Source: an uncultured Clostridia bacterium (GTDB taxonomy: Bacteria; Bacillota; Clostridia; Christensenellales; UBA1242). Taken from it: a DNA stretch of 64,000 bases. The stretch is taken from positions 35,143 to 99,142 of the forward strand of contig CALVYR010000001.1 in NCBI GenBank assembly GCA_944372325.1. Reading direction: 5' to 3'. Below the pieces are notes generated by a model, which saw only the letters and a list, made by a program, of their open reading frames with translations, did not search any database and had not been told where the DNA came from. The translations under genes were made by a program, and so were the position numbers. How positions within the stretch are numbered: position 1 is the first letter of the stretch; each line of letters begins with the position of its first letter. Of this stretch, positions 40,586-51,959 are shown in pieces.

Positions 40586-43500
40586 TTAATTTTTTAGTAA
40601 TGAAATCAGTTTTTTAACCTTATCTTTAGCATTTAAAGGCATGTATAATTCAATTATTGGCACATCTTCAAATTTCAAAACAGCGATATCCTTATTTTTT
40701 TCTATTAAGTTTGCAAGTTTTGGAGATAAGATTTCATCTCTCTTATAGAGATATAGTTTACAATAATTATTGTTTATAAACACCCTCTTAACATCCTCTT
40801 CCTGTGCTAAATTCTTTAAATATGCAATAAGTATAATGTTCTCAACTTCTTCTGGAAGTTCGCCATAGCTTGTAATAAGCTCTTTTTTAGTTTTTTCAAG
40901 CTCTTCAAGGTTAGAAATTTCACTAATTTCACTATATCTTCTAATTCTCTCCGCCTCGCTGGTAATGTAATTTTCTGGAATGTATGCGCTAAGAGAAATA
41001 TCCATTTTAATTTCTTTCTTTTCCTTAACTTTTTCACCTTTAAGCTCTTTAACTGCGTCCTGTAAAAGCTTGCAGTACATATCATAGCCCACTTTTTCCA
41101 TGTGTCCGTGCTGTTCTTTTCCAAGCACATTGCCAGCTCCTCTAATTTCCAAATCTCGCATGGCAATTTTAAAACCACTACCAAGGTCTGTAAACTCCAT
41201 GATAGCTTCCAGTCTTTTATACGCCTGTTCAGTTAAAACCTTACTTCCATTGAAAGTAAAGTAGGCATAAGCAAGCCTATTGCTTCTACCAATTCTGCCA
41301 CGAAGTTGATAAAGTTGAGATAAACCAAGTTTGTCTGAGTCTATAACAATTAGTGTATTAGCTAAAGGCAAATCTACCCCATTTTCAATAAGAGTGGTGG
41401 CAATAAGTATTTGGAAATCACCATTATAAAGCTTTAAAATTGTATCCTCTAGCATCTTTTGAGGAAGTTTTCCATGAGCTACACCAATTTTTACATCTGG
41501 GAGAAGTTCCTTAATTCTGTTTGCAAAATCGTAAATAGTTTCAACACGATTATAAACTATTAAAATTTGACCATCTCTACTGAGTTCTTTTTTACAAGCA
41601 TCCACAATTAACTCTTCACTTTCCTCCACAACAAAAGTTTGAATTGGGAGCCTTTCCTTAGGTGGAGTTTCTATAATGCTAATATCCCTAATACCTGAAA
41701 GCGACATATGAAGCGTTCTAGGAATAGGCGTCGCGCTTAAAGTTAAAACATCTATATCCTTTTTAAGAGCTTTAATTTTTTCCTTATCTCCAACGCCGAA
41801 CCTCTGCTCCTCATCAAGAACTAGTAGGCCTAAATCTTTAAATACAACATCGTTTGCTAGAAGTTTATGTGTGCCTATAACAAGGTCTAAGTCCCCTGAA
41901 GCGATGCTCTTTTTAATCTCTTTAACTTGAGTTTCTGGCACTAACCTATTTAATTTGTTTAGCCTAACCATAAAGCCTTCAAAACGCTTTTTCGCCGTGG
42001 CATAATGTTGCTCAGCAAGTATAGTTGTAGGACATAAAAATGCAACCTGCTTACCATTTAAAATTGCCTTATATATTGCCCTTAGCGCAACTTCAGTTTT
42101 ACCATAACCAACATCGCCACAAATCAGCCTATCCATAACCTTGCCTTTTTCCAGATCGGATAAAACATCGGATATAGCGCTAAGTTGATCTTCTGTTTCC
42201 TCAAATTCAAAGGCCTGTTCAAACATATCATATAAATATCCGCCCTCAGTGTACTTAAAGCCCTTTTGTTTTTCTCTTTCTGAATATAGCTCTAAAAGAT
42301 TGATTGCAAGTTCTTTTACATTTTTATAAACCTTTTCCTTTATTCTTTCAAACTCAGCCCCGCCAAGTTTATTTAATTTTGGCGCTGTATCTGAGCCTAA
42401 GAAAGCGGATATACTTCCCGCCTGTTCGCTTGGAAGATAAAACTTATCACCGCCGGCATATTCAATTACAAAGTAATCTTTTTCCACATCGGCAAGTTTC
42501 ATTCTTGTAAGAGCTATACATTTTCCAACACCGTGAAGCTCATGAACTACATAATCGCCAACTTTTGGAGTATAAAATACCTTTTGCTTCTTATTAGATT
42601 TTACAACATTCTTCTTATAAAGGTCATCTGTTCCTATTAAAACGCTGTCTAAGCTAAGTAGCCAAGCGGACTGTGGAAGATAATCTGAAAAAACTCGAAC
42701 ACCAGCATCTAAATGATCGTCATCTACTGTGGTTATTGAATTTTCAAGCAAAAACTTTTGCATTTTATTTTTGTTATTTTCATTGCCACAAAATAAACTA
42801 ATCTTATAGCCACCTCTTAAAAAGATGGATATATCTTTAACAAGTTCGCGATAGTCAAATAGATATTTTTTTGCACTAGCTGTTTTAAAACTTAAAACCT
42901 CATCTGGTTTAAAAAAATTTGTTTGAGCTAAAAGATTATTAAAAGAAATAAGCGAGTTATTTTTGCTTTTAAAAATATCATCAATGCTTAAAAATAGTTT
43001 TTTATCTTCACCCAAACTTGAATTAAAATTTTCAGCTTCTTGCACTAGTTTTTTAGGTTCATCATAGAAGATATTTGCTTTAAAACTTAATATATTTTCC
43101 TTAGTTAAATTTTTAAGCACGGCTGGATATATTTCTATATCATCTACCTCTTCAAGTAAAGAAAAATCTTCTGAACTTACAATTTGCAATTTTTCTAGGT
43201 CATCGCCAAAATACATAGCTCGAATTAGATTTGTTCCAGAAATTTCCCAGATATCAATTATATCTCCTCTTACAGAGAATTGCCCTTTTCTAGCAGGCTG
43301 TTCTACCCTAGTATAACCATTTTCAATTAGCCTAGATATTAAACTATTGAATGTTATGTTTTTATCTAGCTTTATGATAGATTTTAAAATATCCTCTTCC
43401 TTAGGAACGCGCTCAAAGAGCACTTCAGGAAGAACTATTAAGCCTTGAAGTTTGCCAGTTAAAAAGTCGCATAGCGAGGCTATAAATTCATAGAAAGTAG

Positions 43501-43756
43501 AATTATCTTTAATGCCAAATAAATTTGTAAAAGATGAGGTTAAAATTTTGTTTTTAGCCCCAAGCGCATTTGCTTGAGCTGAAATTGTTTCCGCCGTCAC
43601 AAGATCGCCAGCCATTAAAATTCCATGTTTAGAAAATGAAAAAAATATGCCTTCTGTAGGTGCATTTAAACCAAAAAGGCATTGCTTTTTACCATCTTTT
43701 AAGGCTTGCTTAAAGCTTGTAAGCTCACCAGATTTAAGTAAAATTTCTAAGTTCAC
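40586..43756 (-). CDS. mfd: Transcription-repair coupling factor Mfd
   Basis: 1056 aa. The GTG start overlaps the pth stop. Helicase motifs GDVGYGKTEVA, DEEQRFGV and LSATPIPRTL are present. Confidence 0.95.
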   Translation of the reverse strand: MNLEILLKSGELTSFKQALKDGKKQCLFGLNAPTEGIFFSFSKHGILMAGDLVTAETISAQANALGAKNKILTSSFTNLFGIKDNSTFYEFIASLCDFLTGKLQGLIVLPEVLFERVPKEEDILKSIIKLDKNITFNSLISRLIENGYTRVEQPARKGQFSVRGDIIDIWEISGTNLIRAMYFGDDLEKLQIVSSEDFSLLEEVDDIEIYPAVLKNLTKENILSFKANIFYDEPKKLVQEAENFNSSLGEDKKLFLSIDDIFKSKNNSLISFNNLLAQTNFFKPDEVLSFKTASAKKYLFDYRELVKDISIFLRGGYKISLFCGNENNKNKMQKFLLENSITTVDDDHLDAGVRVFSDYLPQSAWLLSLDSVLIGTDDLYKKNVVKSNKKQKVFYTPKVGDYVVHELHGVGKCIALTRMKLADVEKDYFVIEYAGGDKFYLPSEQAGSISAFLGSDTAPKLNKLGGAEFERIKEKVYKNVKELAINLLELYSEREKQKGFKYTEGGYLYDMFEQAFEFEETEDQLSAISDVLSDLEKGKVMDRLICGDVGYGKTEVALRAIYKAILNGKQVAFLCPTTILAEQHYATAKKRFEGFMVRLNKLNRLVPETQVKEIKKSIASGDLDLVIGTHKLLANDVVFKDLGLLVLDEEQRFGVGDKEKIKALKKDIDVLTLSATPIPRTLHMSLSGIRDISIIETPPKERLPIQTFVVEESEELIVDACKKELSRDGQILIVYNRVETIYDFANRIKELLPDVKIGVAHGKLPQKMLEDTILKLYNGDFQILIATTLIENGVDLPLANTLIVIDSDKLGLSQLYQLRGRIGRSNRLAYAYFTFNGSKVLTEQAYKRLEAIMEFTDLGSGFKIAMRDLEIRGAGNVLGKEQHGHMEKVGYDMYCKLLQDAVKELKGEKVKEKKEIKMDISLSAYIPENYITSEAERIRRYSEISEISNLEELEKTKKELITSYGELPEEVENIILIAYLKNLAQEEDVKRVFINNNYCKLYLYKRDEILSPKLANLIEKNKDIAVLKFEDVPIIELYMPLNAKDKVKKLISLLKN

Positions 43757-44286
43757 TTTTTTAACCCTTTAATATGATTTAATATATAGTCCGCTGAAAG
43801 GTCTATAACTTCATCTATTATTTCTCTAGACTGTTCGTCCATGTTTGAAAGTACATAGTCAGCAAGGTCAAAAGGCTTTTCTTCTGGTTTTATACCTATT
43901 CTAACACGCTTAAAGTCTGTGCCGATGTTTTGAACAATACTTCGCATTCCGTTATGTGTGCCTGCACTTCCCGCCTCACGATAGCGAAAGGTGCCCTTAG
44001 GTAAATCTATATCATCAACGACAACTAGAATTTGGTTATTTTTTAATTTGAATTTATTTTTAAATGACTGCACGCTTGCGCCAGATAAATTCATGTAGGT
44101 TTTAGGTTTAGCTATTATAATCTTCTCGCCATCTAAATTTCCTTCTGCCACGCTTGCTTTTGAATAAGTTTTAGAAAACTTTACACCAAGTTTATTTGCA
44201 ATTTTATCCGCAGTTAAAAAACCTATGTTATGATAGGTATTAAAATATTTTTTATCTGGATTTCCAAGCCCTACAATTAAAAACAT
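43753..44286 (-). CDS. pth: Peptidyl-tRNA hydrolase
   Basis: 177 aa with GLGNPDKKYFNTYHNIGF and the GTHNGMRS motif. Ends in TGA. Confidence 0.95.
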   Translation of the reverse strand: MFLIVGLGNPDKKYFNTYHNIGFLTADKIANKLGVKFSKTYSKASVAEGNLDGEKIIIAKPKTYMNLSGASVQSFKNKFKLKNNQILVVVDDIDLPKGTFRYREAGSAGTHNGMRSIVQNIGTDFKRVRIGIKPEEKPFDLADYVLSNMDEQSREIIDEVIDLSADYILNHIKGLKK

Positions 44287-44297
44287 AACTTTTCCTT

Positions 44298-45080
44298 TTA
44301 ACTAGACTTTGCTACAACGCTTTCATATGGCCCTACTACTGTCTTTTCTGAAATTCTGCTTTCGCTGATGTATGAACACTTAATGATACATTCATCTGAA
44401 ATTATACTATTTTCTATTACACTGCCAAACTCGATTTTGCAGTTCTTTCCTATAAAACTAGCGCCCTTTATATAGGTGTTAGGCTCAAGCACTGTGCCCT
44501 TTTCTATCATGACATCGGCATCTATAAAAGTGCTTAAGGTGTCATTAATTTGAACGCCGTTAGAAAGATGAAAATTTATTATTCTATTTTTTAAAATTTT
44601 AGACACCTTTGCAAGCCCAGCATAGTCCTCTACCACAGTGAAATCATCTGTTCCAAAATCTTCTTGGACAAGCACGCGAATGCTATCTGCATTTCTAATG
44701 TAATCTGTATTAAAAACATACCCACGCCTGAGTGGCAATACATTTAAATCTCTTTGGCGGACATAGGTCATGATTTCATTTAAAGTTTGCCTTTTAAATA
44801 GTGGTGTGTCTGAATATAACACAACTGTGTATTTGCTATCCGTTAGAAGTGGCTTAATTAGTGTGAGTACATCAGATTCTGGAGTGCAAGGAATGGTTTT
44901 AATCATGTAGCCATCACAGGATAGAGCTACCCATTCCCACATCTTTTTACCCCAAATTTTTAAATCGTACGACTTCATAAACTCGCCGAACTTCTTTTCA
45001 AGCATAATTATTACTGAAATTTCATTATCTACAAGTTTTGTTTCCTTTTCCATAACAGTTAATGTTTCAATAACAGCCAT
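44298..45080 (-). CDS. Truncated GlmU-like protein with a degenerate motif (nucleotidyltransferase-like domain plus start of the left-handed beta-helix)
   Basis: 260 aa. Aligns by eye to roughly the first 330 residues of Bacillus GlmU (YSDTPL vs GDTPL; NRIINFHLSNGVQINDTLSTFIDADVMIEKGTVLEPNTYIKG vs the GlmU LbH onset). The LAAGxGTRM signature is replaced by IMLEKKFGEFM, and the acetyltransferase C-terminus is absent. Confidence 0.6.
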   Translation of the reverse strand: MAVIETLTVMEKETKLVDNEISVIIMLEKKFGEFMKSYDLKIWGKKMWEWVALSCDGYMIKTIPCTPESDVLTLIKPLLTDSKYTVVLYSDTPLFKRQTLNEIMTYVRQRDLNVLPLRRGYVFNTDYIRNADSIRVLVQEDFGTDDFTVVEDYAGLAKVSKILKNRIINFHLSNGVQINDTLSTFIDADVMIEKGTVLEPNTYIKGASFIGKNCKIEFGSVIENSIISDECIIKCSYISESRISEKTVVGPYESVVAKSS

Positions 45081-45090
45081 AAATTCACCT

Positions 45091-46389
45091 CTACTTATTA
45101 TACTTCTTTACATCAGCTTTTGCAAGCTTTAAAGCGTCCTCATAGCTTCTGCCACCTTTTACATAGAGCGCAACATAGCTTAAAAGTTTTACTTTATTCT
45201 TGTAATTGCCTTTTTTATAATAGCTTTTCCAATAATTCCAATACTCTCTAGCGCCCTTTTTATCATAGATATCCAAAGATATATCAACCGCCTTTATGTG
45301 CTCGCGCTGTTTTTTAGAGAGCTTTACATTCTCTGGATAAACCCATAGGAAATCTCTAACCTCAGCTTTATCTTCAGGCGAGGTTACATCGTAGAAATAA
45401 ATTTTATCAAACTCACGCATTTCGTAGCCAACATTGGCTTTTATGGACTCCTCATCATCAAATTTCATTTGTCCTGCCACAACTTTTCTTTCCGTCATGA
45501 GCGCGCTTACTTGTTCAAGGAGGCTTAACATTTGCATGAATATGAGAACTGTTAGTGGAAGTATAACTAAAATAATCATACCAATTCCACTTGCGCAAAA
45601 TTTAAACACAGAGCGTATCCATTGCGGAGTGTTTATATACTTTCCCACAACTAAATCTTCTCTTATTAGATAGCTATCCGCTGAAGAGTTGCTATCACCC
45701 TTTGTTTCAAAAAATCTAACACCGCTTTCATCTACATAGACAGCTACAATTCTGTGGAAATAAATTCTAGTATACTCTGTTATAAGTTCATCTGCAGTCT
45801 TTCTATTTTCATATTCCCCGCGCGTTGGCTCTTCAATGTTATCAAAATCTGTAATCAAAGTAAAGGTTGGCCTTAAGCCTCTATCCACGCTATCTTGAGC
45901 ATAGTAGAAAGCTATGATATCTCCCTCGTAGTCATCGCTTTTAGGCCTGAGATTATCTGTGTTTGTTTTGTTTATTATAACAATATCATTTATTTCAAAC
46001 CCACCTGCACGCATACTTCCGCTTTGAATTGCAGCAAAGCCAACACCAAACACAGTGTTTACTTCATTCTTTCTTTGATTTGAATACAAAACAAAGCTAG
46101 AAAATAGTGCAATTATTATAACCGGCACAATTATGCAGTCGGAAATAATGCCTAGGATAGCATAAAATGTCCTCTGCTTCTTTTTTGGTTTATTTTGACT
46201 ACTTAAATTAATTTCACTTAGGCTCTTCTGGTCTTTTTGGTCTTTTGGGGAGTTTTGGTTTTTCTTCTCCTCTATCTCCGCCGTCTGCTTGCTTGTTTTC
46301 AGCTCCTCCTTGTTCTCCACTTTGGGCTGAGATTGAGCCTTCTTTGGTGGTCTCTTTGGCAGAGCCTTGCTCGTTTTTTTCTGTTCCAA
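45091..46389 (-). CDS. SipW-type (ER/archaeal-type S26) signal peptidase paralog 1, with a second TM and a conserved C-terminal cytoplasmic domain
   Basis: Contains the Ser box SGSMRAG, the His box FHRIV and ETKGDSNSSAD. TTG 46389 has AAGGAG 6 nt upstream. The first in-frame ATG (the M of SGSM) lies after the N-terminal TM and inside the Ser box, so it cannot be the start. Confidence 0.7.
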   Translation of the reverse strand: MEQKKTSKALPKRPPKKAQSQPKVENKEELKTSKQTAEIEEKKNQNSPKDQKDQKSLSEINLSSQNKPKKKQRTFYAILGIISDCIIVPVIIIALFSSFVLYSNQRKNEVNTVFGVGFAAIQSGSMRAGGFEINDIVIINKTNTDNLRPKSDDYEGDIIAFYYAQDSVDRGLRPTFTLITDFDNIEEPTRGEYENRKTADELITEYTRIYFHRIVAVYVDESGVRFFETKGDSNSSADSYLIREDLVVGKYINTPQWIRSVFKFCASGIGMIILVILPLTVLIFMQMLSLLEQVSALMTERKVVAGQMKFDDEESIKANVGYEMREFDKIYFYDVTSPEDKAEVRDFLWVYPENVKLSKKQREHIKAVDISLDIYDKKGAREYWNYWKSYYKKGNYKNKVKLLSYVALYVKGGRSYEDALKLAKADVKKYNK

Positions 46390-47491
46390 GTTTTTCTCCT
46401 TGCTTTAAATTTTTTGCGTCCGCTTCTTTTATTGCGCTTTTAATTCTCCATTCCTCTCTATAGAAATTTAGCTTTTCTTTATTGCCCTTACCCTTAATTT
46501 TTTCTATCCACATATCAAAATATGCTTCTGGGTTAGTTTTAAAAGTGGCAACCGCTTTCTTTACAAACTTGTATTCTTCCTTTTCCTTTTTACTGCCCGA
46601 TTCAAGATGTTTCCATAAAAAGTCCTCCACGCCTTGCTTATCTTCCTCAGACGCCAGCGCATAAAACCGGACTTTTTCTATGTCATTCATCTCTATTCCA
46701 ACATTGGCTTTCAAGCTTTCTGGAGCGTTGTATCTAATTTTACCCTGAATGACAGATTTTTCTATCATCATATTATTAGTTTGCTCAATCAAGCTAAAAC
46801 ATTCAAATAAAATTAAAATTCCAAGTGGTAAAACAACTAAAAGTATCATGCCCATTTGAGAAGCGCAAAACCTAAAAGTTGCCCTTAGCCAATTTGGAGT
46901 GTAGGAATATCTCCCCAGCACATAATCAGCCCTAATTTTTGTTGTATCCTTGCCAACATTTCCCGTGCCCTTTGTTTCTAAAAACAGCGTGCCATCGTCA
47001 TCTACATATCTTCCCACCACTTCGTGAAATACAATTCTTGTGGTTGTGGGAAGCTCGCTTGCGCTCAACCTATCTTCCGCCCCACTAACTGTCAGGTTAG
47101 AACTATCTGGCGCAGTTAAAACCTCATCATTGCTTACTTCAGTTAAATGGATGTTTCTATCCGCAGGGTCAGCATAAGAATAAAAAGCAATTACATCGCC
47201 AAGCTCGTCTTCTATATCATTTGGCGTGCCCACCTTCAAGGTGTAGGGGTCGCATTTAGTTAAAAACAAAACATCGCCCTTCATAAACCCGCTAGGCTCC
47301 ATGCTTTCAGAGGCAACAAACACAAGTGATAAGCCAAATATGCTAGGAAGAGTGTTTTGACTTCTTGCCACAAACATAGCCGAGCTTGAAATAAGCGCGA
47401 TTAAAATAACAGGAATTAAAATAATATCCCCGATTATACCAAGAACTTGATAAAAAGTTTTATTCTTTTTAGTTTTCTCTACATTAGTCAC
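46214..47491 (-). CDS. SipW-type S26 signal peptidase paralog 2, with a Lys/Glu/Gly-rich C-terminal tail
   Basis: GTG start. Contains SESMEPSG, FHEVV and ETKGTGNVGKD. It has the same TM / catalytic domain / TM / ~130-aa tail architecture as paralog 1 (KANVGIEM...DFLWKH vs KANVGYEM...DFLWVY). Confidence 0.7.
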   Translation of the reverse strand: MTNVEKTKKNKTFYQVLGIIGDIILIPVILIALISSSAMFVARSQNTLPSIFGLSLVFVASESMEPSGFMKGDVLFLTKCDPYTLKVGTPNDIEDELGDVIAFYSYADPADRNIHLTEVSNDEVLTAPDSSNLTVSGAEDRLSASELPTTTRIVFHEVVGRYVDDDGTLFLETKGTGNVGKDTTKIRADYVLGRYSYTPNWLRATFRFCASQMGMILLVVLPLGILILFECFSLIEQTNNMMIEKSVIQGKIRYNAPESLKANVGIEMNDIEKVRFYALASEEDKQGVEDFLWKHLESGSKKEKEEYKFVKKAVATFKTNPEAYFDMWIEKIKGKGNKEKLNFYREEWRIKSAIKEADAKNLKQGEKLGTEKNEQGSAKETTKEGSISAQSGEQGGAENKQADGGDRGEEKPKLPKRPKRPEEPK

Positions 47492-47654
47492 GCTAGTAGT
47501 TTACCACCAAAGCGCTAAAAAAACAAATAAAATTGAAAAAAGGTTAAAAATAATATATTAAATTAAATAGTTTTATAAAATAGCAAACAAAAAAGCTGAA
47601 GTTAAAAATTAAAACTTTAGCTAATTGTTAAATATTAGTGTCAGCCCGCAAGAT

Positions 47655-49307
47655 TCAAGATTGGAGATTGAAGAGCAAAGCCGGGCGCGCGCCGTAGGGC
47701 TCAAAGGACACATAGTAGTAGTCCACATCACCATAGTAGTACACGTCGTATGCGATTTTGGTGGCGGAGGCCGCGGAAGATGTCCAGTAGTACGAGCTCC
47801 CTAGTCCATGAATGTCTGGGTAGTTGCTTGTAGTTTTATATGCGCAGTTTGCCATTGCAAAGTCTGTTGCACTCGCTCTTCTTTGTTGGTCTTGGTTACT
47901 ATATGATGAATTAAATCCATAGTCTGTATTTATCATATCATAGTAACTTGGTGCAAATACGTTTAATTTTTCTGTTGATGCTATTGTTAAACTGGAATCA
48001 TTAGGATTAGTTTGACCATATTTTGTTGCATCTAAATCTGCATCTGTTAATGTTCTTTGTGCTATTAAAGCTTGCTCTTCTGCTGTAAATGCGTCTGAAT
48101 AGAACACTTCATTTAAAAATGGTCTTAATGCATTTGTTTCTGCACTATAATGTGTGTGGTTTGTATTACTTGTACTTGGGTTAAAGGTTGTATTAGCACT
48201 TAATACATATTCACTTAGTAAATATGATACTGGGGTTGTATTTTCTGTATCTGTGTAGTTCTCAGTTAATACTCTCCACTGTATTGGCTCTACTTTAAAC
48301 CAGTAAGTTTCTCCGTTCTCTATTGTTGTTCCGTCGTTAAACGTTTTTGCTCCACTTTTATATAAATCTGCTTGTGGTACTCGGCAATAGGTGTTGCCGT
48401 CTATATATTCGTAAGCGTTATATACTACTGGTTCGTTTAATGTTGAACCTGAATAACCTTTATACGCTGTATATGTTTCTGCTACTGGCTGGTTTGTATA
48501 CCATGCTTCTAAAGTAGCGTTCATTGTGTCGCCTACATAGGTTTGTGGGTATTTGCCAAAGTATACAAAGGTATATGTTTGCCCATTTATTACTTCTTGC
48601 TCTATTCTATATGGGGGTTCTTTTTGTTTAAAACTAACATTCATTTCTATCGTGCTAGTGGCTAAGTCGCTCATAAAGTTATTTAACGTTACTGCTATTT
48701 TATAGCATGCTTGCCCAGGCGTTGTTTCGTTTGTTCTTGCGGGTATTGTAAAGTTATATGTAGGCGAGCCAGTGGCAGTGGCAGAATTTGAAGTTGTGCC
48801 TGTATATGTTGCAATAGTTAGCTGACCTTGTTCTACATAGGTTGCTAGCGCTTCGCTTATGCCAGATACTGTTCCTTGCACTTCAAACGGAGAATAGTTT
48901 GATACTGTAAACTCATACACTACAACTTTATTTGTACTTGTGTAGTTTATATCCCCTATTGCCCAAGTGTCTACTTGCGTGCCACTTTGGTTTACAAAAT
49001 ATGTTGTAGACGGCTCGCCGTTTGGTGCGTCTGGCGTTGCACCTGTTGCCATTCTTGGATAGGAATAAGCCTTAAATGTATTTTGCCCTGTGGGCGCTTC
49101 TGTACCAGATAGTACTTGCGCACTGCTTACGTCTGTCCCTTGTTTTAAGCTTGCGTCTACCATTACATACACGCCATCAGCTTCAAACCTAAGCGTGCTT
49201 GTAACATTTAATGTTGCAGTAGTTGCAGATAGCACGCCCACAACAAATAAACTAAGGCACACGCAAAGTGTTGCAACTATTGCTGTTATTCTTACCCTTT
49301 TACTCAT
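47655..49307 (-). CDS. Secreted 550-aa protein: TasA/camelysin-like N-terminal beta domain plus C-terminal domain with GKYPQ...WRVL...RPAL motifs (DUF6273-like)
   Basis: RBS AAAGGAG. Signal-anchor ITAIVATLCVCLSLFVVGVLSA. The N-terminal domain is paralogous to the 205-aa protein at 1809-2426. The C-terminal half contains YFGKYPQTYVGD, WFKVEPIQWRVL and GARPALLFNL. Confidence 0.7.
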   Translation of the reverse strand: MSKRVRITAIVATLCVCLSLFVVGVLSATTATLNVTSTLRFEADGVYVMVDASLKQGTDVSSAQVLSGTEAPTGQNTFKAYSYPRMATGATPDAPNGEPSTTYFVNQSGTQVDTWAIGDINYTSTNKVVVYEFTVSNYSPFEVQGTVSGISEALATYVEQGQLTIATYTGTTSNSATATGSPTYNFTIPARTNETTPGQACYKIAVTLNNFMSDLATSTIEMNVSFKQKEPPYRIEQEVINGQTYTFVYFGKYPQTYVGDTMNATLEAWYTNQPVAETYTAYKGYSGSTLNEPVVYNAYEYIDGNTYCRVPQADLYKSGAKTFNDGTTIENGETYWFKVEPIQWRVLTENYTDTENTTPVSYLLSEYVLSANTTFNPSTSNTNHTHYSAETNALRPFLNEVFYSDAFTAEEQALIAQRTLTDADLDATKYGQTNPNDSSLTIASTEKLNVFAPSYYDMINTDYGFNSSYSNQDQQRRASATDFAMANCAYKTTSNYPDIHGLGSSYYWTSSAASATKIAYDVYYYGDVDYYYVSFEPYGARPALLFNLQS

Positions 49308-49450
49308 TTTTCTTTTACTCCTTTTGATTATTGTTTATATTTTTTTAATTTTTATGTAAGTTTGCCGAGTTTTCAACTTACAGCTCTATAGTTTCTCTTA
49401 AAGGCTACTTAAAATGTTATCCTTACCTTAAAATTTTTTTTGCCTAGCCT

Positions 49451-49477
49451 ATTCTACCCCCCCCGCATTTTTGTCAA
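49451..49477 (-). promoter_or_regulatory. Putative promoter of the 550-aa gene with a G8 (C8 on +) tract in the spacer
   Basis: The minus strand reads TTGACA aaaatgc GGGGGGGG TAGAAT. The spacer is 15 nt. The homopolymer spans 49457-49464. Confidence 0.35.
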
Positions 49478-49501
49478 GCGAAATTAATTACTTTTCTAGT
49501 T

Positions 49502-49567
49502 TTTTTATTTTTCCATTTCTCCCACCCTGAAGCTTGAACAAAAATTCGGGGCTTAGAAGATTTTTTT
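49502..49567. repeat. Dispersed ~65-nt repeat, copy A
   Basis: tttttatttttccatttctcccaccctgaagcttgaacaaaaat... aligns with 56450-56513. The two copies share an identical 15-mer agcttgaacaaaaat (49531-49545 / 56478-56492) and a shared aagatttttt tail. Confidence 0.7.
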
Positions 49568-49620
49568 GATAGGCTAGTGCTTCTAATTTTTTTAGTCCTC
49601 ACTCTTGCCTGCCCGCGTAA

Positions 49621-49902
49621 TCCCCACCCCAGCGCCTTTAATTCTGACGGACCCTCGCCCCCTGCCGTCATTTCGACCGTAAGAAATTATCCCCTTTTCT
49701 TCTATTTAAGCTTTTTGCTAGATGTTTTGTTTAAACTTTACCTTTCCTTTATATGTAGTGGAGAAATCTCAGCCTTAGAAAAAAGTAGCCGAGATTTCTC
49801 CGCTTCATACTAACTTTTACTAATAACCTTAATCCCCATCTAGCATTAACTATAACAAAAAATAAACACTATTTCCTTTCGGTCGAAATGACGAGGGTGA
49901 GG
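49621..49902. repeat. Nested-palindrome element E1 (GC-rich ends, AT-rich spacers)
   Basis: The outer arms are a perfect 14-bp inverted repeat: cgtcatttcgaccg (49666-49679) / cggtcgaaatgacg (49880-49893). The inner arms are a perfect 11-bp hairpin: ggagaaatctc (49760-49770) / gagatttctcc (49791-49801). The spacers between them are nearly symmetric at 80 and 78 nt. Confidence 0.8.
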
Positions 49903-49967
49903 CGTTGCTATTAAAAAAATAAAAACTAATCTTACTATCCGCGTTCAAAACTCTTTTTTTTAATTAT

Positions 49968-50198
49968 GCGGGTCACGGGAGGAGATCCTTCGGCTTCGCT
50001 CAGGATGACAACGGAGTAACGCCTACGCTAGAGCCCTCGAAGCCTCTTGCAACGCCAAGCTTTCACACACCAGCAAAGCCATGCTCCGCCCTCCACCCAC
50101 GCGAGCCCTGCCCACGCTAGCCGTCATTCTGAGCGGAGAGCGTTTACGCGACTATCCGCGAAGAATCTCCTTTTCGCCCGAGCTAGCCAGACTCTGCC
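49968..50198 (+). repeat. GC-rich direct repeat R1 (231 nt), upstream of the GIY-YIG gene
   Basis: About 90% identical to R2 apart from one indel. Internal inverted arms are ggagatccttcggcttcgctcaggatgac (49981-50009) versus gtcattctgagcg...cgcgaagaatctcc (50123-50170). The first 60 nt are 37/60 G+C, whereas the adjacent 50201-50260 is 7/60. Confidence 0.85.
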
Positions 50199-50293
50199 AA
50201 TTTTTCTTGTAAGTATATTATTTATTATCTACTCATTAATAAAAAGTTAATTTATTATTTGCAAAATAATTTTTGCTATTGTATTATTCTTAT

Positions 50294-50587
50294 ATGAAAA
50301 AAGGCTATGTTTACATTCTTACAAATAAATATAACAATGTTTTTTATGTTGGCGTAACATCAAATATAAAAAGAAGAATTTATGAACATAAAAATCATAA
50401 ACTTAAAGGCTTTACTAATAAATATGATGTTATTAAAGTTATTTATATTGAAGTTTTTGATAAAATAACAGATGCTATTACAAGAGAAAAACAAATTAAG
50501 GGTTGGTCTAGACAAAAAAAGATTGATTTGATAAAAACTTGTAATTCAAGTTTTGACGATTTATATAATACAATTATAAATTCCTAA
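50294..50587 (+). CDS. Small GIY-YIG nuclease family protein (UPF0213/YhbQ-like)
   Basis: 97 aa from ATG 50294. GYVYILTN-x8-FYVGVT forms the GIY-YIG motif, followed by RRIYEH and REKQIKGWSRQKK. Confidence 0.85.
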   Translation: MKKGYVYILTNKYNNVFYVGVTSNIKRRIYEHKNHKLKGFTNKYDVIKVIYIEVFDKITDAITREKQIKGWSRQKKIDLIKTCNSSFDDLYNTIINS

Positions 50588-50604
50588 TTTGTTATTTTTT
50601 TCAA

Positions 50605-50858
50605 GCGGGTCGCGGGAGGAGATCCTTCGGCTTCGCTCAGGATGACGAAAAAGGAAAACCTTTTTCGCTCGCAACGGAGTAGCGCCTCCGCCAGAGCCCT
50701 CGAAGCCTCTTGCAACGCCAAGCTTTCACACACCAGCAAAGCCATGCTCCGCCCTCCACCCGCGCAAGCCCTGCCCCAGAGCCGTCATTCTGAGCGGGGA
50801 GCGTTTGCGCGACTATCCGCGAAGAATCTCCTTGCTACCCTTGCTAGCCAGACTCTAC
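50605..50858 (+). repeat. GC-rich direct repeat R2 (254 nt), downstream of the GIY-YIG gene
   Basis: Collinear with R1. It carries a 26-nt insertion (50647-50672) that contains its own perfect 8-bp hairpin gaaaaagg/cctttttc. Confidence 0.85.
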
Positions 50859-50870
50859 TTTCCCTGCAAC

Positions 50871-50925
50871 GCCTCGCCCCAGCGCATTTTTATTCTACCA
50901 AGTGTGCCCGCCGTCCTTTCGGTTA
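50871..50925. repeat. Partial copy (C2) of the left end of element E1
   Basis: gcctcgccccagcgcatttttattctacc...gcccgccgtcctttcgg resembles 49621-49679 (ccccaccccagcgcctttaattctgac...ccctgccgtcatttcgaccg). Confidence 0.55.
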
Positions 50926-50986
50926 AAATAACAAAGAAAAAGTTTACTTTTAACTCAAAACATAAAAAATAGCCAAAAGTTTTTGG

Positions 50987-51847
50987 CTACTTGGTTTTAT
51001 TTTTGTTTGTTAAGTTATTAAACTCTTCTTCACTTACATATCTATAATATTCATAACTTGGGTTTTCATCTAACATCTGTTGCATTGCTTGCTCAGCTCG
51101 CTGACTTAAGTCCTCTATTTGCTGTTTACTATCTAAACTTGCGTTCGCATAGAGCGGTTCGCCAACAATTATATTTAATCTGGGTGCACGCCTTACTAGC
51201 TTTTCTATACCCTTTGGTTTACGAAAAGTTATTAAATATGGTATTATTGGCACATTATATTTTACAGCAAAGTAAAAGGAACCTCGCTTGAACGGCCTTA
51301 GCTTATTATAGTAGGGCCACAAACTTGCCTCTGGGAAAAGATGAACTATTTTGCCTTCATCTAAAGAGCGCTTTATACATTTATAGAATAAAACCCAATC
51401 GGAGGGCGTTTCTGCAAGTGGCAGACAGCCGTAAAGTTTACAAAGGTGCCTAACGGTTGGAATTTTAAAGTTATCCTTTAGGGTTACAACAACCACACTT
51501 TTTTGCTTAGATAAAAACACAGGACAAACACTCCAATCAACATAGTGCACATGATTGGATATTGTTATTGCTCCGCCCTTTAAGCCTTTTAAATTTTTTT
51601 TGCCTTTAACTTTTACTCCAAGATAAATTTTATCGTAAAGGTAAAGTAGAGGCAAGGCTATACATTTTTGCGCAATATATTTAAATGCGCGAGTAAAGAC
51701 ATTTGGTTTTTTATATATCTTTTTATAATTTAATTTTATATCTAAAACTCGTGTGTGATAAATATCTTCATTTAAATCTTCGGGCATGCACACAAGTTTA
51801 TGTTTTTTATCTATATTTTTTTGCTTCATGCAAAGTAATTTTAACAC
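50987..51847 (-). CDS. 1-acyl-sn-glycerol-3-phosphate acyltransferase (PlsC/LPLAT family)
   Basis: GTG start. Contains the HX4D motif NHVHYVD and an FPEASLWP block. Confidence 0.8.
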   Translation of the reverse strand: MLKLLCMKQKNIDKKHKLVCMPEDLNEDIYHTRVLDIKLNYKKIYKKPNVFTRAFKYIAQKCIALPLLYLYDKIYLGVKVKGKKNLKGLKGGAITISNHVHYVDWSVCPVFLSKQKSVVVVTLKDNFKIPTVRHLCKLYGCLPLAETPSDWVLFYKCIKRSLDEGKIVHLFPEASLWPYYNKLRPFKRGSFYFAVKYNVPIIPYLITFRKPKGIEKLVRRAPRLNIIVGEPLYANASLDSKQQIEDLSQRAEQAMQQMLDENPSYEYYRYVSEEEFNNLTNKNKTK

Positions 51848-51959
51848 ATTTTTATAACTTTAAAAACTATTTTAACAGAATTTTTAATAAAAGTAAGGTT
51901 TAATTGTTTACAATTTTTTATTTTTTTATTATACTAAATAGGTTTTAAAAGGATAGAGT

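Follow-up and report, generated by a model that had tools for sequence, protein, structure and literature searches.

We analysed a 64-kb stretch of genomic DNA from an uncultured Clostridia bacterium (contig CALVYR010000001.1, positions 35,143 to 99,142), called the window below, and within it a small gene for a GIY-YIG nuclease that is enclosed by two copies of a G+C-rich repeat, R1 and R2. The gene lies in a 1.68-kb intergenic region, flanked on the left by a DUF6273 gene (47655-49307, - strand) and on the right by an acyltransferase gene (50987-51847, - strand), and it is the only GIY-YIG gene in the window. Judged by its sequence, the locus very probably belongs to the Ssn/SRM system, in which an SsnA-type protein is combined with cognate hairpin repeats (SRM). 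It is not a new kind of system, as Ssn/SRM was characterised in 2025. To the published system it adds a host among the Clostridia, a variant of the repeat whose short stem escapes the published search string, and a composite R unit of 230-300 nt. The main features of the locus are as follows.

50294..50587 (stop included), + strand: ssnA-type gene, 97-aa single-domain GIY-YIG nuclease (PF01541)
50259..50287, + strand: promoter-like site TTGCAA-17 nt-TATTAT from a consensus scan, ending 6 nt before the ATG
49968..50198, + strand: R1, upstream composite repeat (sequence, blastn, alignment)
50605..50858, + strand: R2, downstream composite repeat with the R1 layout plus a 26-nt hairpin insertion
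50647..50672, no strand assigned: 26-nt hairpin indel GAAAAAGGAAAACCTTTTTCGCTCGC, abutting the GTC end of the R2 left module
49981..50009, - strand: SRM, R1 left, reading GTC-ATCCT-GAGCGAAGCCGA-AGGAT-C-TCC (detector match 49984-50009)
50123..50170, + strand: SRM, R1 right, reading GTC-ATTCT-GAGCG[GAGAGCGTTTACGCGACTATCCG]CGA-AGAAT-C-TCC (detector match)
50618..50646, - strand: SRM, R2 left, ATCCT/AGGAT stem, 31 nt past the stop codon (detector match)
50784..50831, + strand: SRM, R2 right, ATTCT/AGAAT stem (detector match)

The SsnA-type protein and its relatives

The Ssn system was described by Chenal et al. (Nat Commun 2025, PMC11893778). According to this work, SsnA of Neisseria meningitidis is a 94-aa single-domain GIY-YIG protein (CDD cd10448), which binds the repeat NTS, CGTCATTCCCGCGMAVGCGGGAATCYRG, as single-stranded DNA (ssDNA) only and cuts it a few nucleotides upstream. 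It does not act on double-stranded DNA (dsDNA) or RNA. In the NTS, cleavage is governed by the three bases located 5' of the palindrome (GTC) and binding by the C that follows it on the 3' side, and the mutation of Y6, Y17 and E64 abolishes cleavage. The ssn homologs were found across bacteria, most of them in Gram-negative species; 71% are accompanied by any SRM and 42% by SRMs on both sides. The authors liken the NTS-ssnA-NTS arrangement to an insertion sequence and draw an analogy with REP/RAYT (PMC11893778). An earlier, sequence-only reading of the window had considered the mechanism of the nuclease and repeat arrangement undescribed, which is superseded by this publication.

The protein encoded in the window matched PF01541 over residues 3-77 of 97 (E = 3.4e-19) and contained no further domain. 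It shares with SsnA the single-domain organisation, the length of ~95 aa and the catalytic Tyr/Tyr/Glu residues. In a gap-free BLASTP alignment of 90 aa, it had 44% identity with the protein encoded at the ssnA locus of N. gonorrhoeae (E = 5e-30). The gonococcal locus has canonical NTS repeats on both sides. With tblastn, the window protein gave E = 8e-20 and 1e-17 on two N. gonorrhoeae chromosomes filed as plasmids in PLSDB, values below the 1e-10 by which homologs were defined in the published work (PMC11893778). Residues Y7, Y18 and E65 were invariant in 24 homologs, and they align, with an offset of +1, with Y6, Y17 and E64 of N. meningitidis SsnA (PMC11893778). The two PLSDB entries, L118 (NZ_CP119142.1) and L119 (NZ_CP119140.1; L numbers denote the compared loci), are complete chromosomes of 2.17 Mb. 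The ssnA frame of L118 is out of frame with the nearest upstream ATG and may be a pseudogene in that strain. A protein search seeded with the homolog from L088 returned no named Neisseria protein among the best 120 matches, all of which were environmental.

Other small GIY-YIG proteins were more distant. The UPF0213, or bacterial Slx1-like, proteins BH0048 (1zg2), EF2693 (1ywl) and YhbQ are also minimal stand-alone GIY-YIG proteins of ~100 aa, yet they appear to belong to a different subfamily and are only remotely similar to the window protein, with matches at E = 3.7e-5 and 4e-3. We know of no repeat association for BH0048, EF2693 or YhbQ. A 2006 phylogenomics paper on GIY-YIG proteins regarded the prokaryotic stand-alone members as Slx1-like proteins passed on by vertical descent. 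No relevant literature turned up on GIY-YIG in connection with REP, COG2827 or YhbQ, or on the motif as a string. PADLOC gave weak partial matches only.

The promoter call rests on a consensus match. The same layout, TTGCAA...TATAAT-6 nt-ATG, was found upstream of the homolog at L008 (2968-3000), and across both loci the spacing is 16/17 nt. The sequence suggests that the ssnA mRNA is leaderless or nearly so.

Repeat anatomy and hairpin modules of the window

R1 and R2 are collinear direct repeats with a period of 637-663 nt. In blastn, they were 82.7% identical over 254 columns including the 26-nt gap, and the shared columns were ~93% identical; the ungapped blocks comprise 105 nt at 95% and 77 nt at 90%. 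The sequence-only reading had estimated ~90% identity and had placed the repeats on both sides of a 97-aa GIY-YIG open reading frame (ORF), which agrees with the alignment and with the intact gene. It had also described G+C-rich repeats beside A+T-rich DNA, and we measured a G+C content of 0.60-0.62 in the repeats vs 0.18-0.21 over the gene, the window average being 0.337.

Each R consists of a reverse hairpin module, a 113-nt spacer, a forward hairpin module and a tail ending in GCTAGCCAGACTCT. The R1 tail matches the terminal inverted repeat of a 298-nt R-type element at L008 (AGAGTCTGGCTAGC...GCTAGCGAGACTC), the 3' end of which runs into AGACTC(T/C). The long-range inverted arms noticed earlier, GGAGATCCTTCG..GCTCAGGATGAC and GTCATTCTGAGCG..CGAAGAATCTCC, were found in both copies and were paired in the predicted fold. 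With up to two mismatches allowed, GTCATTCTGAGCG had 4 matches in the 64 kb, all of them within R1/R2, against 0.56 expected.

The insertion in R2, for which a hairpin of its own had been proposed, forms a 9-bp hairpin with an ssDNA folding energy of -9.0 kcal/mol (z = -4.2; 0 of 200 shuffles were as good). It is absent from R1 of the window. A compensated variant, GCAAAGGGCAAACCTTTGC, occurs in R1 of L001, which is another strain, and in L114 and L115. By analogy, the GTC side that carries this indel would correspond to the side cut by Neisseria SsnA (PMC11893778).

Spurious ORFs of 53-94 aa cross R1 and R2 (50047-50250, 50642-50926 and 50584-50745 on the - strand) and read …SRHSERRAF… and …VILSEAEGS…, so that the mis-translation into ...RHSER... 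peptides, which the sequence-only reading had mentioned, was found in the window itself. Such peptides are likely to pollute protein databases.

An SRM is a palindrome of 20-50 nt that follows a GTC and precedes a C without intervening bases, and it is found on both sides of the ssn gene. All four hairpin modules of R1 and R2 share the adjoining GTC and C with the NTS; GTCATTCTGAGCG...CGAAGAATCTCC and GTCATCCTGAGCGAAGCCGAAGGATCTCC represent them. The two modules of each R face outwards, and the gene thus has a forward module upstream and a reverse module downstream. The forward one, in R1, sits directly upstream of the promoter region. The informative unit is this 26-48-nt GTC-hairpin-C module and not the whole 230-255-nt repeat. 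Further decayed modules were found downstream of R2, and modules related to them occur in L114 and L115:

50866..50932, no strand assigned: decayed repeat modules GCAACGCCTCGCCCCAGCGC... and TCCTTTCGGTTAAAATAAC (repeat families D4 and D7, inverted repeat I6)

Association of gene and repeat across phyla

A homolog scan with one genome per species yielded at least 595 relatives of the window protein. The association of gene and repeat was assessed on the best 80 of these loci, which are distributed over ~25 phyla and encode proteins 47-62% identical to that of the window. The contexts compared included a 69%-identical protein from a sporulating Clostridia lineage as well as homologs from Sulfurimonas, Omnitrophota, Patescibacteria, Scalindua and Legionella. 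The part conserved across these contexts is a 26-48-nt module of the form GTC-AT-xyz-(loop)-z'y'x'-AT-C, exemplified by GTCATTCTGAGCG...CGAAGAATC, GTCATTGCGAGG...GAAGCAATC and GTCATCCCGAGCGTAGAGAGGGATC. A strict detector, requiring exact GTCAT, at least three further complementary pairs and ATC, found 353 modules in the 756 kb of the 80 loci vs 27 after shuffling. The density of modules was 7.6 per kb within 150 nt of the gene vs 0.07-0.22 per kb beyond 600 nt, which amounts to a ~40-fold enrichment near the gene. A forward module was present within 150 nt upstream in 53 of the 80 loci and a reverse module within 120 nt downstream in 57; both occurred together in 42. The recurrence of the motif near small GIY-YIG genes of several phyla, which the sequence-only reading had stated, was therefore correct. 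Because the repeats are not unique to the window locus and the gene rarely occurs without them, neither of the two observations that would have spoken against such a cassette was made.

The covariation of the stem was tested in a way that did not presuppose pairing, by asking how often a GTCAT+triplet site is followed, within 75 nt, by the complement of its own triplet and ATC, compared with foreign triplets. Near the genes, the own complement was found at 129 of 171 sites, and the value for foreign triplets was 2.2%. Pairing was observed for 14 different triplet types. The homolog at L088, whose protein is 51% identical, carries CGTCATTCCTGCGAAGGCAGGAATCCAG, which differs from the published NTS by a single compensated base pair.

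Direct repeats of at least 30 nt bracketed the gene in 26 of 77 loci, and the architecture of the window is therefore a long example of a recurrent pattern. The 69%-identical homolog at L008, from another Clostridia lineage, occupies a different genomic position (rsmH-cysS), and R-type composites enclose it there too. They carry the terminal inverted repeats AGAGTCTGGCTAGC/GCTAGCGAGACTC and contain nested insertions, which vary from strain to strain. Because the gene at rsmH-cysS is also bracketed by R-type composites, R and the gene seem to share a history, and R appears from the sequences to have diverged together with the gene.

The survey also brought several side observations. In the GTCATYCTGAG class of modules (the window, L035, L038, L085 and L099), the left module of a unit has the stem ATTCT/AGAAT and the right one ATCCT/AGGAT. 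The difference is seen in at least four phyla, both for modules that surround the gene and for gene-less pairs; it was not found in the Results parts 1-3, the Discussion or the one Methods section of the Ssn paper (PMC11893778). Stutters of the 5' half-module, consisting of GTCAT, the 5' arm and part of the loop with a period of ~22-26 nt, lie directly upstream of complete modules (L012 2570-2960; L061 5900-5990; L028 upstream of the gene; L085 3400-3560; L021 2430-2490). By analogy, they would fall on the side where SsnA cuts (PMC11893778). R or module sequences are also interrupted, in a strain-variable manner, by a second palindromic element of unrelated sequence (…AAATTTCTGCGCTTTTGG…GCAAACTCCAGC…GGAGTTTGGTGCG…) (L004 2617-2770; L008 3560-3720 and 3790-3920; L121 11545-11700), which indicates that small repeat families nest. 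In Sulfurimonas, a distance of 1.5 kb separates the ssnA repeat array from a gene that encodes a 23S rRNA intervening-sequence protein (PF05635; L012 1176-1451 and L013 1155-1511). Genes of this kind form a small family and are often present in multiple copies.

Two readings of R1 and R2 can be weighed against these data. The first takes them for functional RNAs (guide, regulator or ribozyme) transcribed for the GIY-YIG protein, as in the structured-RNA and nuclease module that had been suggested from the sequence. It would accommodate the G+C-rich islands with long-range pairing in A+T-rich DNA, the covarying stem and the non-random orientation of modules relative to the gene. However, a search of Rfam 15 gave no match in R at the gathering threshold and chance-level matches only at E <= 10, and the folding of whole R, on either strand, gave z = -1.75, -1.99 and -1.20. 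Each strand has one G-T in the long-range arms, and an RNA from one strand is thus not favoured over that from the other. Modules are present in either orientation and also a long way from any ssnA transcript, their covariation is explained equally well by DNA hairpins, and the characterised enzyme does not bind RNA (PMC11893778). We consider this reading very unlikely. The second, according to which R1 and R2 are an incidental tandem duplication with no functional tie to the gene, has in its favour their direct orientation and the 637-663-nt period. It is hardly credible, given the same association in dozens of unrelated genomes, its presence at a different locus in the related lineage of L008, and the existence of R elsewhere without the gene.

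Some results weigh against the assignment of the locus to the Ssn/SRM system, or against a full transfer of the Neisseria biochemistry to it. The published degenerate string HGTCWYN(0-2)YYVSBRHN(0-5)WNVSBRGN(0-2)RNCYNB had 0 matches in the window and matched at 4 of the 80 homolog loci. This string is a search heuristic, not a definition, and it models the long-stem NTS type. The window repeat, which it does not detect, is therefore best described as a divergent variant whose stem is short (5 bp) and whose loop is long. Folded as ssDNA, the short window modules reached -1.8 to -3.6 kcal/mol, no better than shuffles; the R1 right module gave -10.4 kcal/mol (z = -2.0) and the R2 right module -8.6 kcal/mol (z = -0.1). 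Stems of 5 bp are thus barely stable in free ssDNA. Support for a hairpin therefore comes from covariation, which a symmetric dsDNA-binding site would produce as well. The comparison with Neisseria was made with the N. gonorrhoeae ortholog, not with the N. meningitidis protein. Cleavage by the window protein of its own repeat variant is expected by homology, and a biological role of Ssn has been described for Neisseria only (PMC11893778).

Gene-less copies, possible mobility and proposed action

Copies of R were also sought beyond the locus, with a pattern specific to the right-hand module of this lineage that was run on metagenome contigs. It found four contigs (L114-L117), none of which encodes the nuclease. 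L114 is 98% identical to window positions 42959-47792 and has a single R beside the left flank known from the window; repeat debris and unrelated genes come next. L115 and L116 contain R, a partial R and the gene-less element that neighbours R1 in the window, in a different order, and L117 contains a solitary module with tail. The gene itself lies in a variable block of the window. In four relatives with 76-93% nucleotide identity (L120, L121, L124 and L127), window position 47556 is joined directly to ~51870, so these lack the whole block. None of eight related loci had ssnA within 8 kb. The features concerned are the following.

47557..51869, no strand assigned: variable 4.3-kb block with the DUF6273 gene, the gene-less element, R1-ssnA-R2 and the acyltransferase gene
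49666..49893, no strand assigned: gene-less palindromic element of ~230 nt adjoining R1 (inverted repeats I1 and I2)

The gene-less element has inward-facing module-like ends, GTCATTTCGACCG..GAAAT (forward at 49667, reverse at 49892), with the stem ATTTC/GAAAT. Its ends are without the 3' C and have T or A instead. A central hairpin, GGAGAAATCTCAGCC/GCCGAGATTTCTCC, occupies 49752-49809, and the element recurs in L115, L116 and L121.

In the window, the variable block lies between a 425-aa gene and an AlaRS-like gene. The four relatives without the block have a shorter DUF6273 paralog downstream of leuS, with similar upstream sequence and repeat fragments, and this placement suggests a rearrangement associated with repeats. 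As to assembly, all seven contigs that carry the acyltransferase gene (L107-L113) end 13-208 nt past it, six of them (157-208 nt) inside R2. R breaks short-read assemblies systematically, and many homologous proteins were seen only on contigs <2 kb. The metagenomes ERZ24773289, ERZ24773329, ERZ28615067 and ERZ1090861 contain this locus.

These data bear on the selfish or mobile cassette proposed in the sequence-only reading. The unit SRM-ssnA-SRM, or a circular R-ssnA, may be a minimal transposon that resembles an insertion sequence, moves via ssDNA and uses the nuclease as its transposase. R, the 49666-49893 element and tight gene-less SRM pairs would then be non-autonomous (MITE/REPIN-like) derivatives, and R-ssnA-R would arise when a one-R circle integrates into a resident R. 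Several observations fit such mobility: the scattering of the homologs over ~25 phyla; the different loci of the gene in related Clostridia; the absence of the 4.3-kb block from relatives; and the 98%-identical strain with one R, no gene and the same left flank. To these can be added the families formed by gene-less forward-reverse SRM pairs (five copies in L085, for example), the consistent difference between left and right ends (ATTCT vs ATCCT stems) in several phyla, gene-less pairs included, the direct repeats around the gene, and the architecture likened to an insertion sequence by the authors of the Ssn paper (PMC11893778).

However, no transposition event, excision circle or clean empty site was found among the loci compared. 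To the right of its solo R, L114 continues with more repeat sequence and then with genes of no relation. No insertion motif or target-site duplication turned up, and the flanks are themselves repeats, which precludes the search for such a duplication. GIY-YIG enzymes act by hydrolysis of DNA, and no rejoining of strands is known for them, so that mobility would need host functions. The spacers of gene-less pairs are unlike the gene-proximal sequence. In the phage collection, tblastn found no homologs of the window protein, with remote homologs beyond the reach of this search; in viral contigs, the R-specific right-hand SRM pattern had no exact match, divergent SRMs being beyond the reach of the pattern. 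Most matches in the plasmid collection were to large replicons or to chromosomes with a wrong label. An autonomous mobile element is therefore possible but tentative, and it extends the assignment to the Ssn/SRM system and is compatible with it. A selfish or mobile nature of the cassette, as proposed earlier, is plausible. A more specific version is rather doubtful. It takes SRM-ssnA-SRM for a self-mobilising element of ~400-650 bp that is cut by a GIY-YIG ssDNA nickase, has left (ATTCT) and right (ATCCT) ends like those of IS200/IS605, leaves R, the 49666-49893 element and gene-less pairs as progeny, and forms R-ssnA-R by integration of a circle. To our knowledge, ~400-650 bp is smaller than any known autonomous insertion sequence. 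The idea that gene-less hairpin pairs are simple internal deletions of a gene copy was rejected, as their spacers are unrelated.

The gene-less pairs are also relevant to a free-standing homing endonuclease, which would cut an uninterrupted forward-reverse SRM pair, so that repair from an occupied copy pastes the gene in. Such pairs, with 10-60-nt spacers, occur in the same contigs as occupied ones, the gene is always located between the two modules, and GIY-YIG is a classical homing-endonuclease fold. The window protein, however, is without a DNA-binding extension; the only NCBIfam match, to the model TIGR01453 (group I intron endonuclease), scored 25.1 bits vs a cut-off of 56 and covered the N-terminal 37 residues only; and the Rfam search gave no intron model match. 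On either side of the gene there is a complete R unit and not half of one. The Neisseria enzyme does not cut dsDNA, and it cuts outside the repeat and not between repeats (PMC11893778). We regard homing as improbable. The known GIY-YIG homing endonucleases, I-TevI and the phage Seg proteins, share with the window locus the GIY-YIG core, the small gene and a patchy distribution of the kind left by horizontal gene transfer. The window locus differs in having no DNA-binding domain, linker, intron or phage context, and its substrate would be ssDNA hairpins, not a long dsDNA site.

As a member of the Ssn/SRM system, the locus may work as follows. By analogy with the Neisseria and Wolbachia enzymes, the window protein would bind the SRM only in ssDNA with the hairpin formed, for example during replication, repair or DNA uptake. 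It would read the sequence of the stem together with its structure, as well as the flanking GTC and C, and would nick the strand on which the module reads forward, a few nucleotides 5' of GTC. In a flanking module pair, the cuts would fall outside the unit, one per strand. The likely outcome would be breakage and recombination at repeat-bearing ssDNA, with a possible role of the protein in the control of recombination or in the spread of the repeat. Breakage and repair would account for the pile-ups of repeats, the indels on the GTC side, and the gain or loss of the gene between direct R copies. The 26-nt hairpin indel, the half-module stutters, the solo-R strain and the mosaic order of elements may be read as traces of it.

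Compared with the described Ssn/SRM members, which are mostly Gram-negative, the window host is a gut Clostridia (Bacillota) close to Candidatus Caccopulliclostridium. Its repeats likewise consist of GTC, a palindrome and C, are clustered and lie on both sides of the gene. The stem, however, is 5 bp long (ATTCT/AGAAT or ATCCT/AGGAT) with a long, partly conserved loop, in contrast to the ~9-bp stem of NTS, and the modules are paired inside a 230-300-nt composite that is directly repeated around the gene. The REP/BIME/RAYT system, related to IS200/IS605, is alike in its short hairpin repeats with a conserved 5' tag, its mosaics of alternating orientation, its small nuclease gene flanked by its own repeats, and presumed ssDNA recognition. 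The window enzyme, in contrast, is a GIY-YIG hydrolase and not an HUH/Y1 tyrosine transposase, its tag is GTC...C and not GTAG, and no strand-transfer chemistry is known on the GIY-YIG side. Membership in REP/RAYT was rejected, since the repeats enclose no gene other than the GIY-YIG one and carry GTC as their tag.

The assignment gives a name and a tested biochemical precedent to the very common genes annotated as "GIY-YIG nuclease family protein", and likewise to the G+C-rich repeat debris around them, a routine source of false translations in metagenome assemblies and a cause of broken contigs. Gut Clostridia are thereby added to the hosts of the Ssn/SRM system. A large class of repeats with short stems, among them the common GTCATTGCGAG...GAAGCAATC type, escapes the published search string. 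The gene-less R copies, the solo-R strain, the absent block and the asymmetric ends bear on the question of mobility left by the 2025 paper, and the new enzyme-repeat pairs are candidate tools for site-defined cutting of ssDNA.

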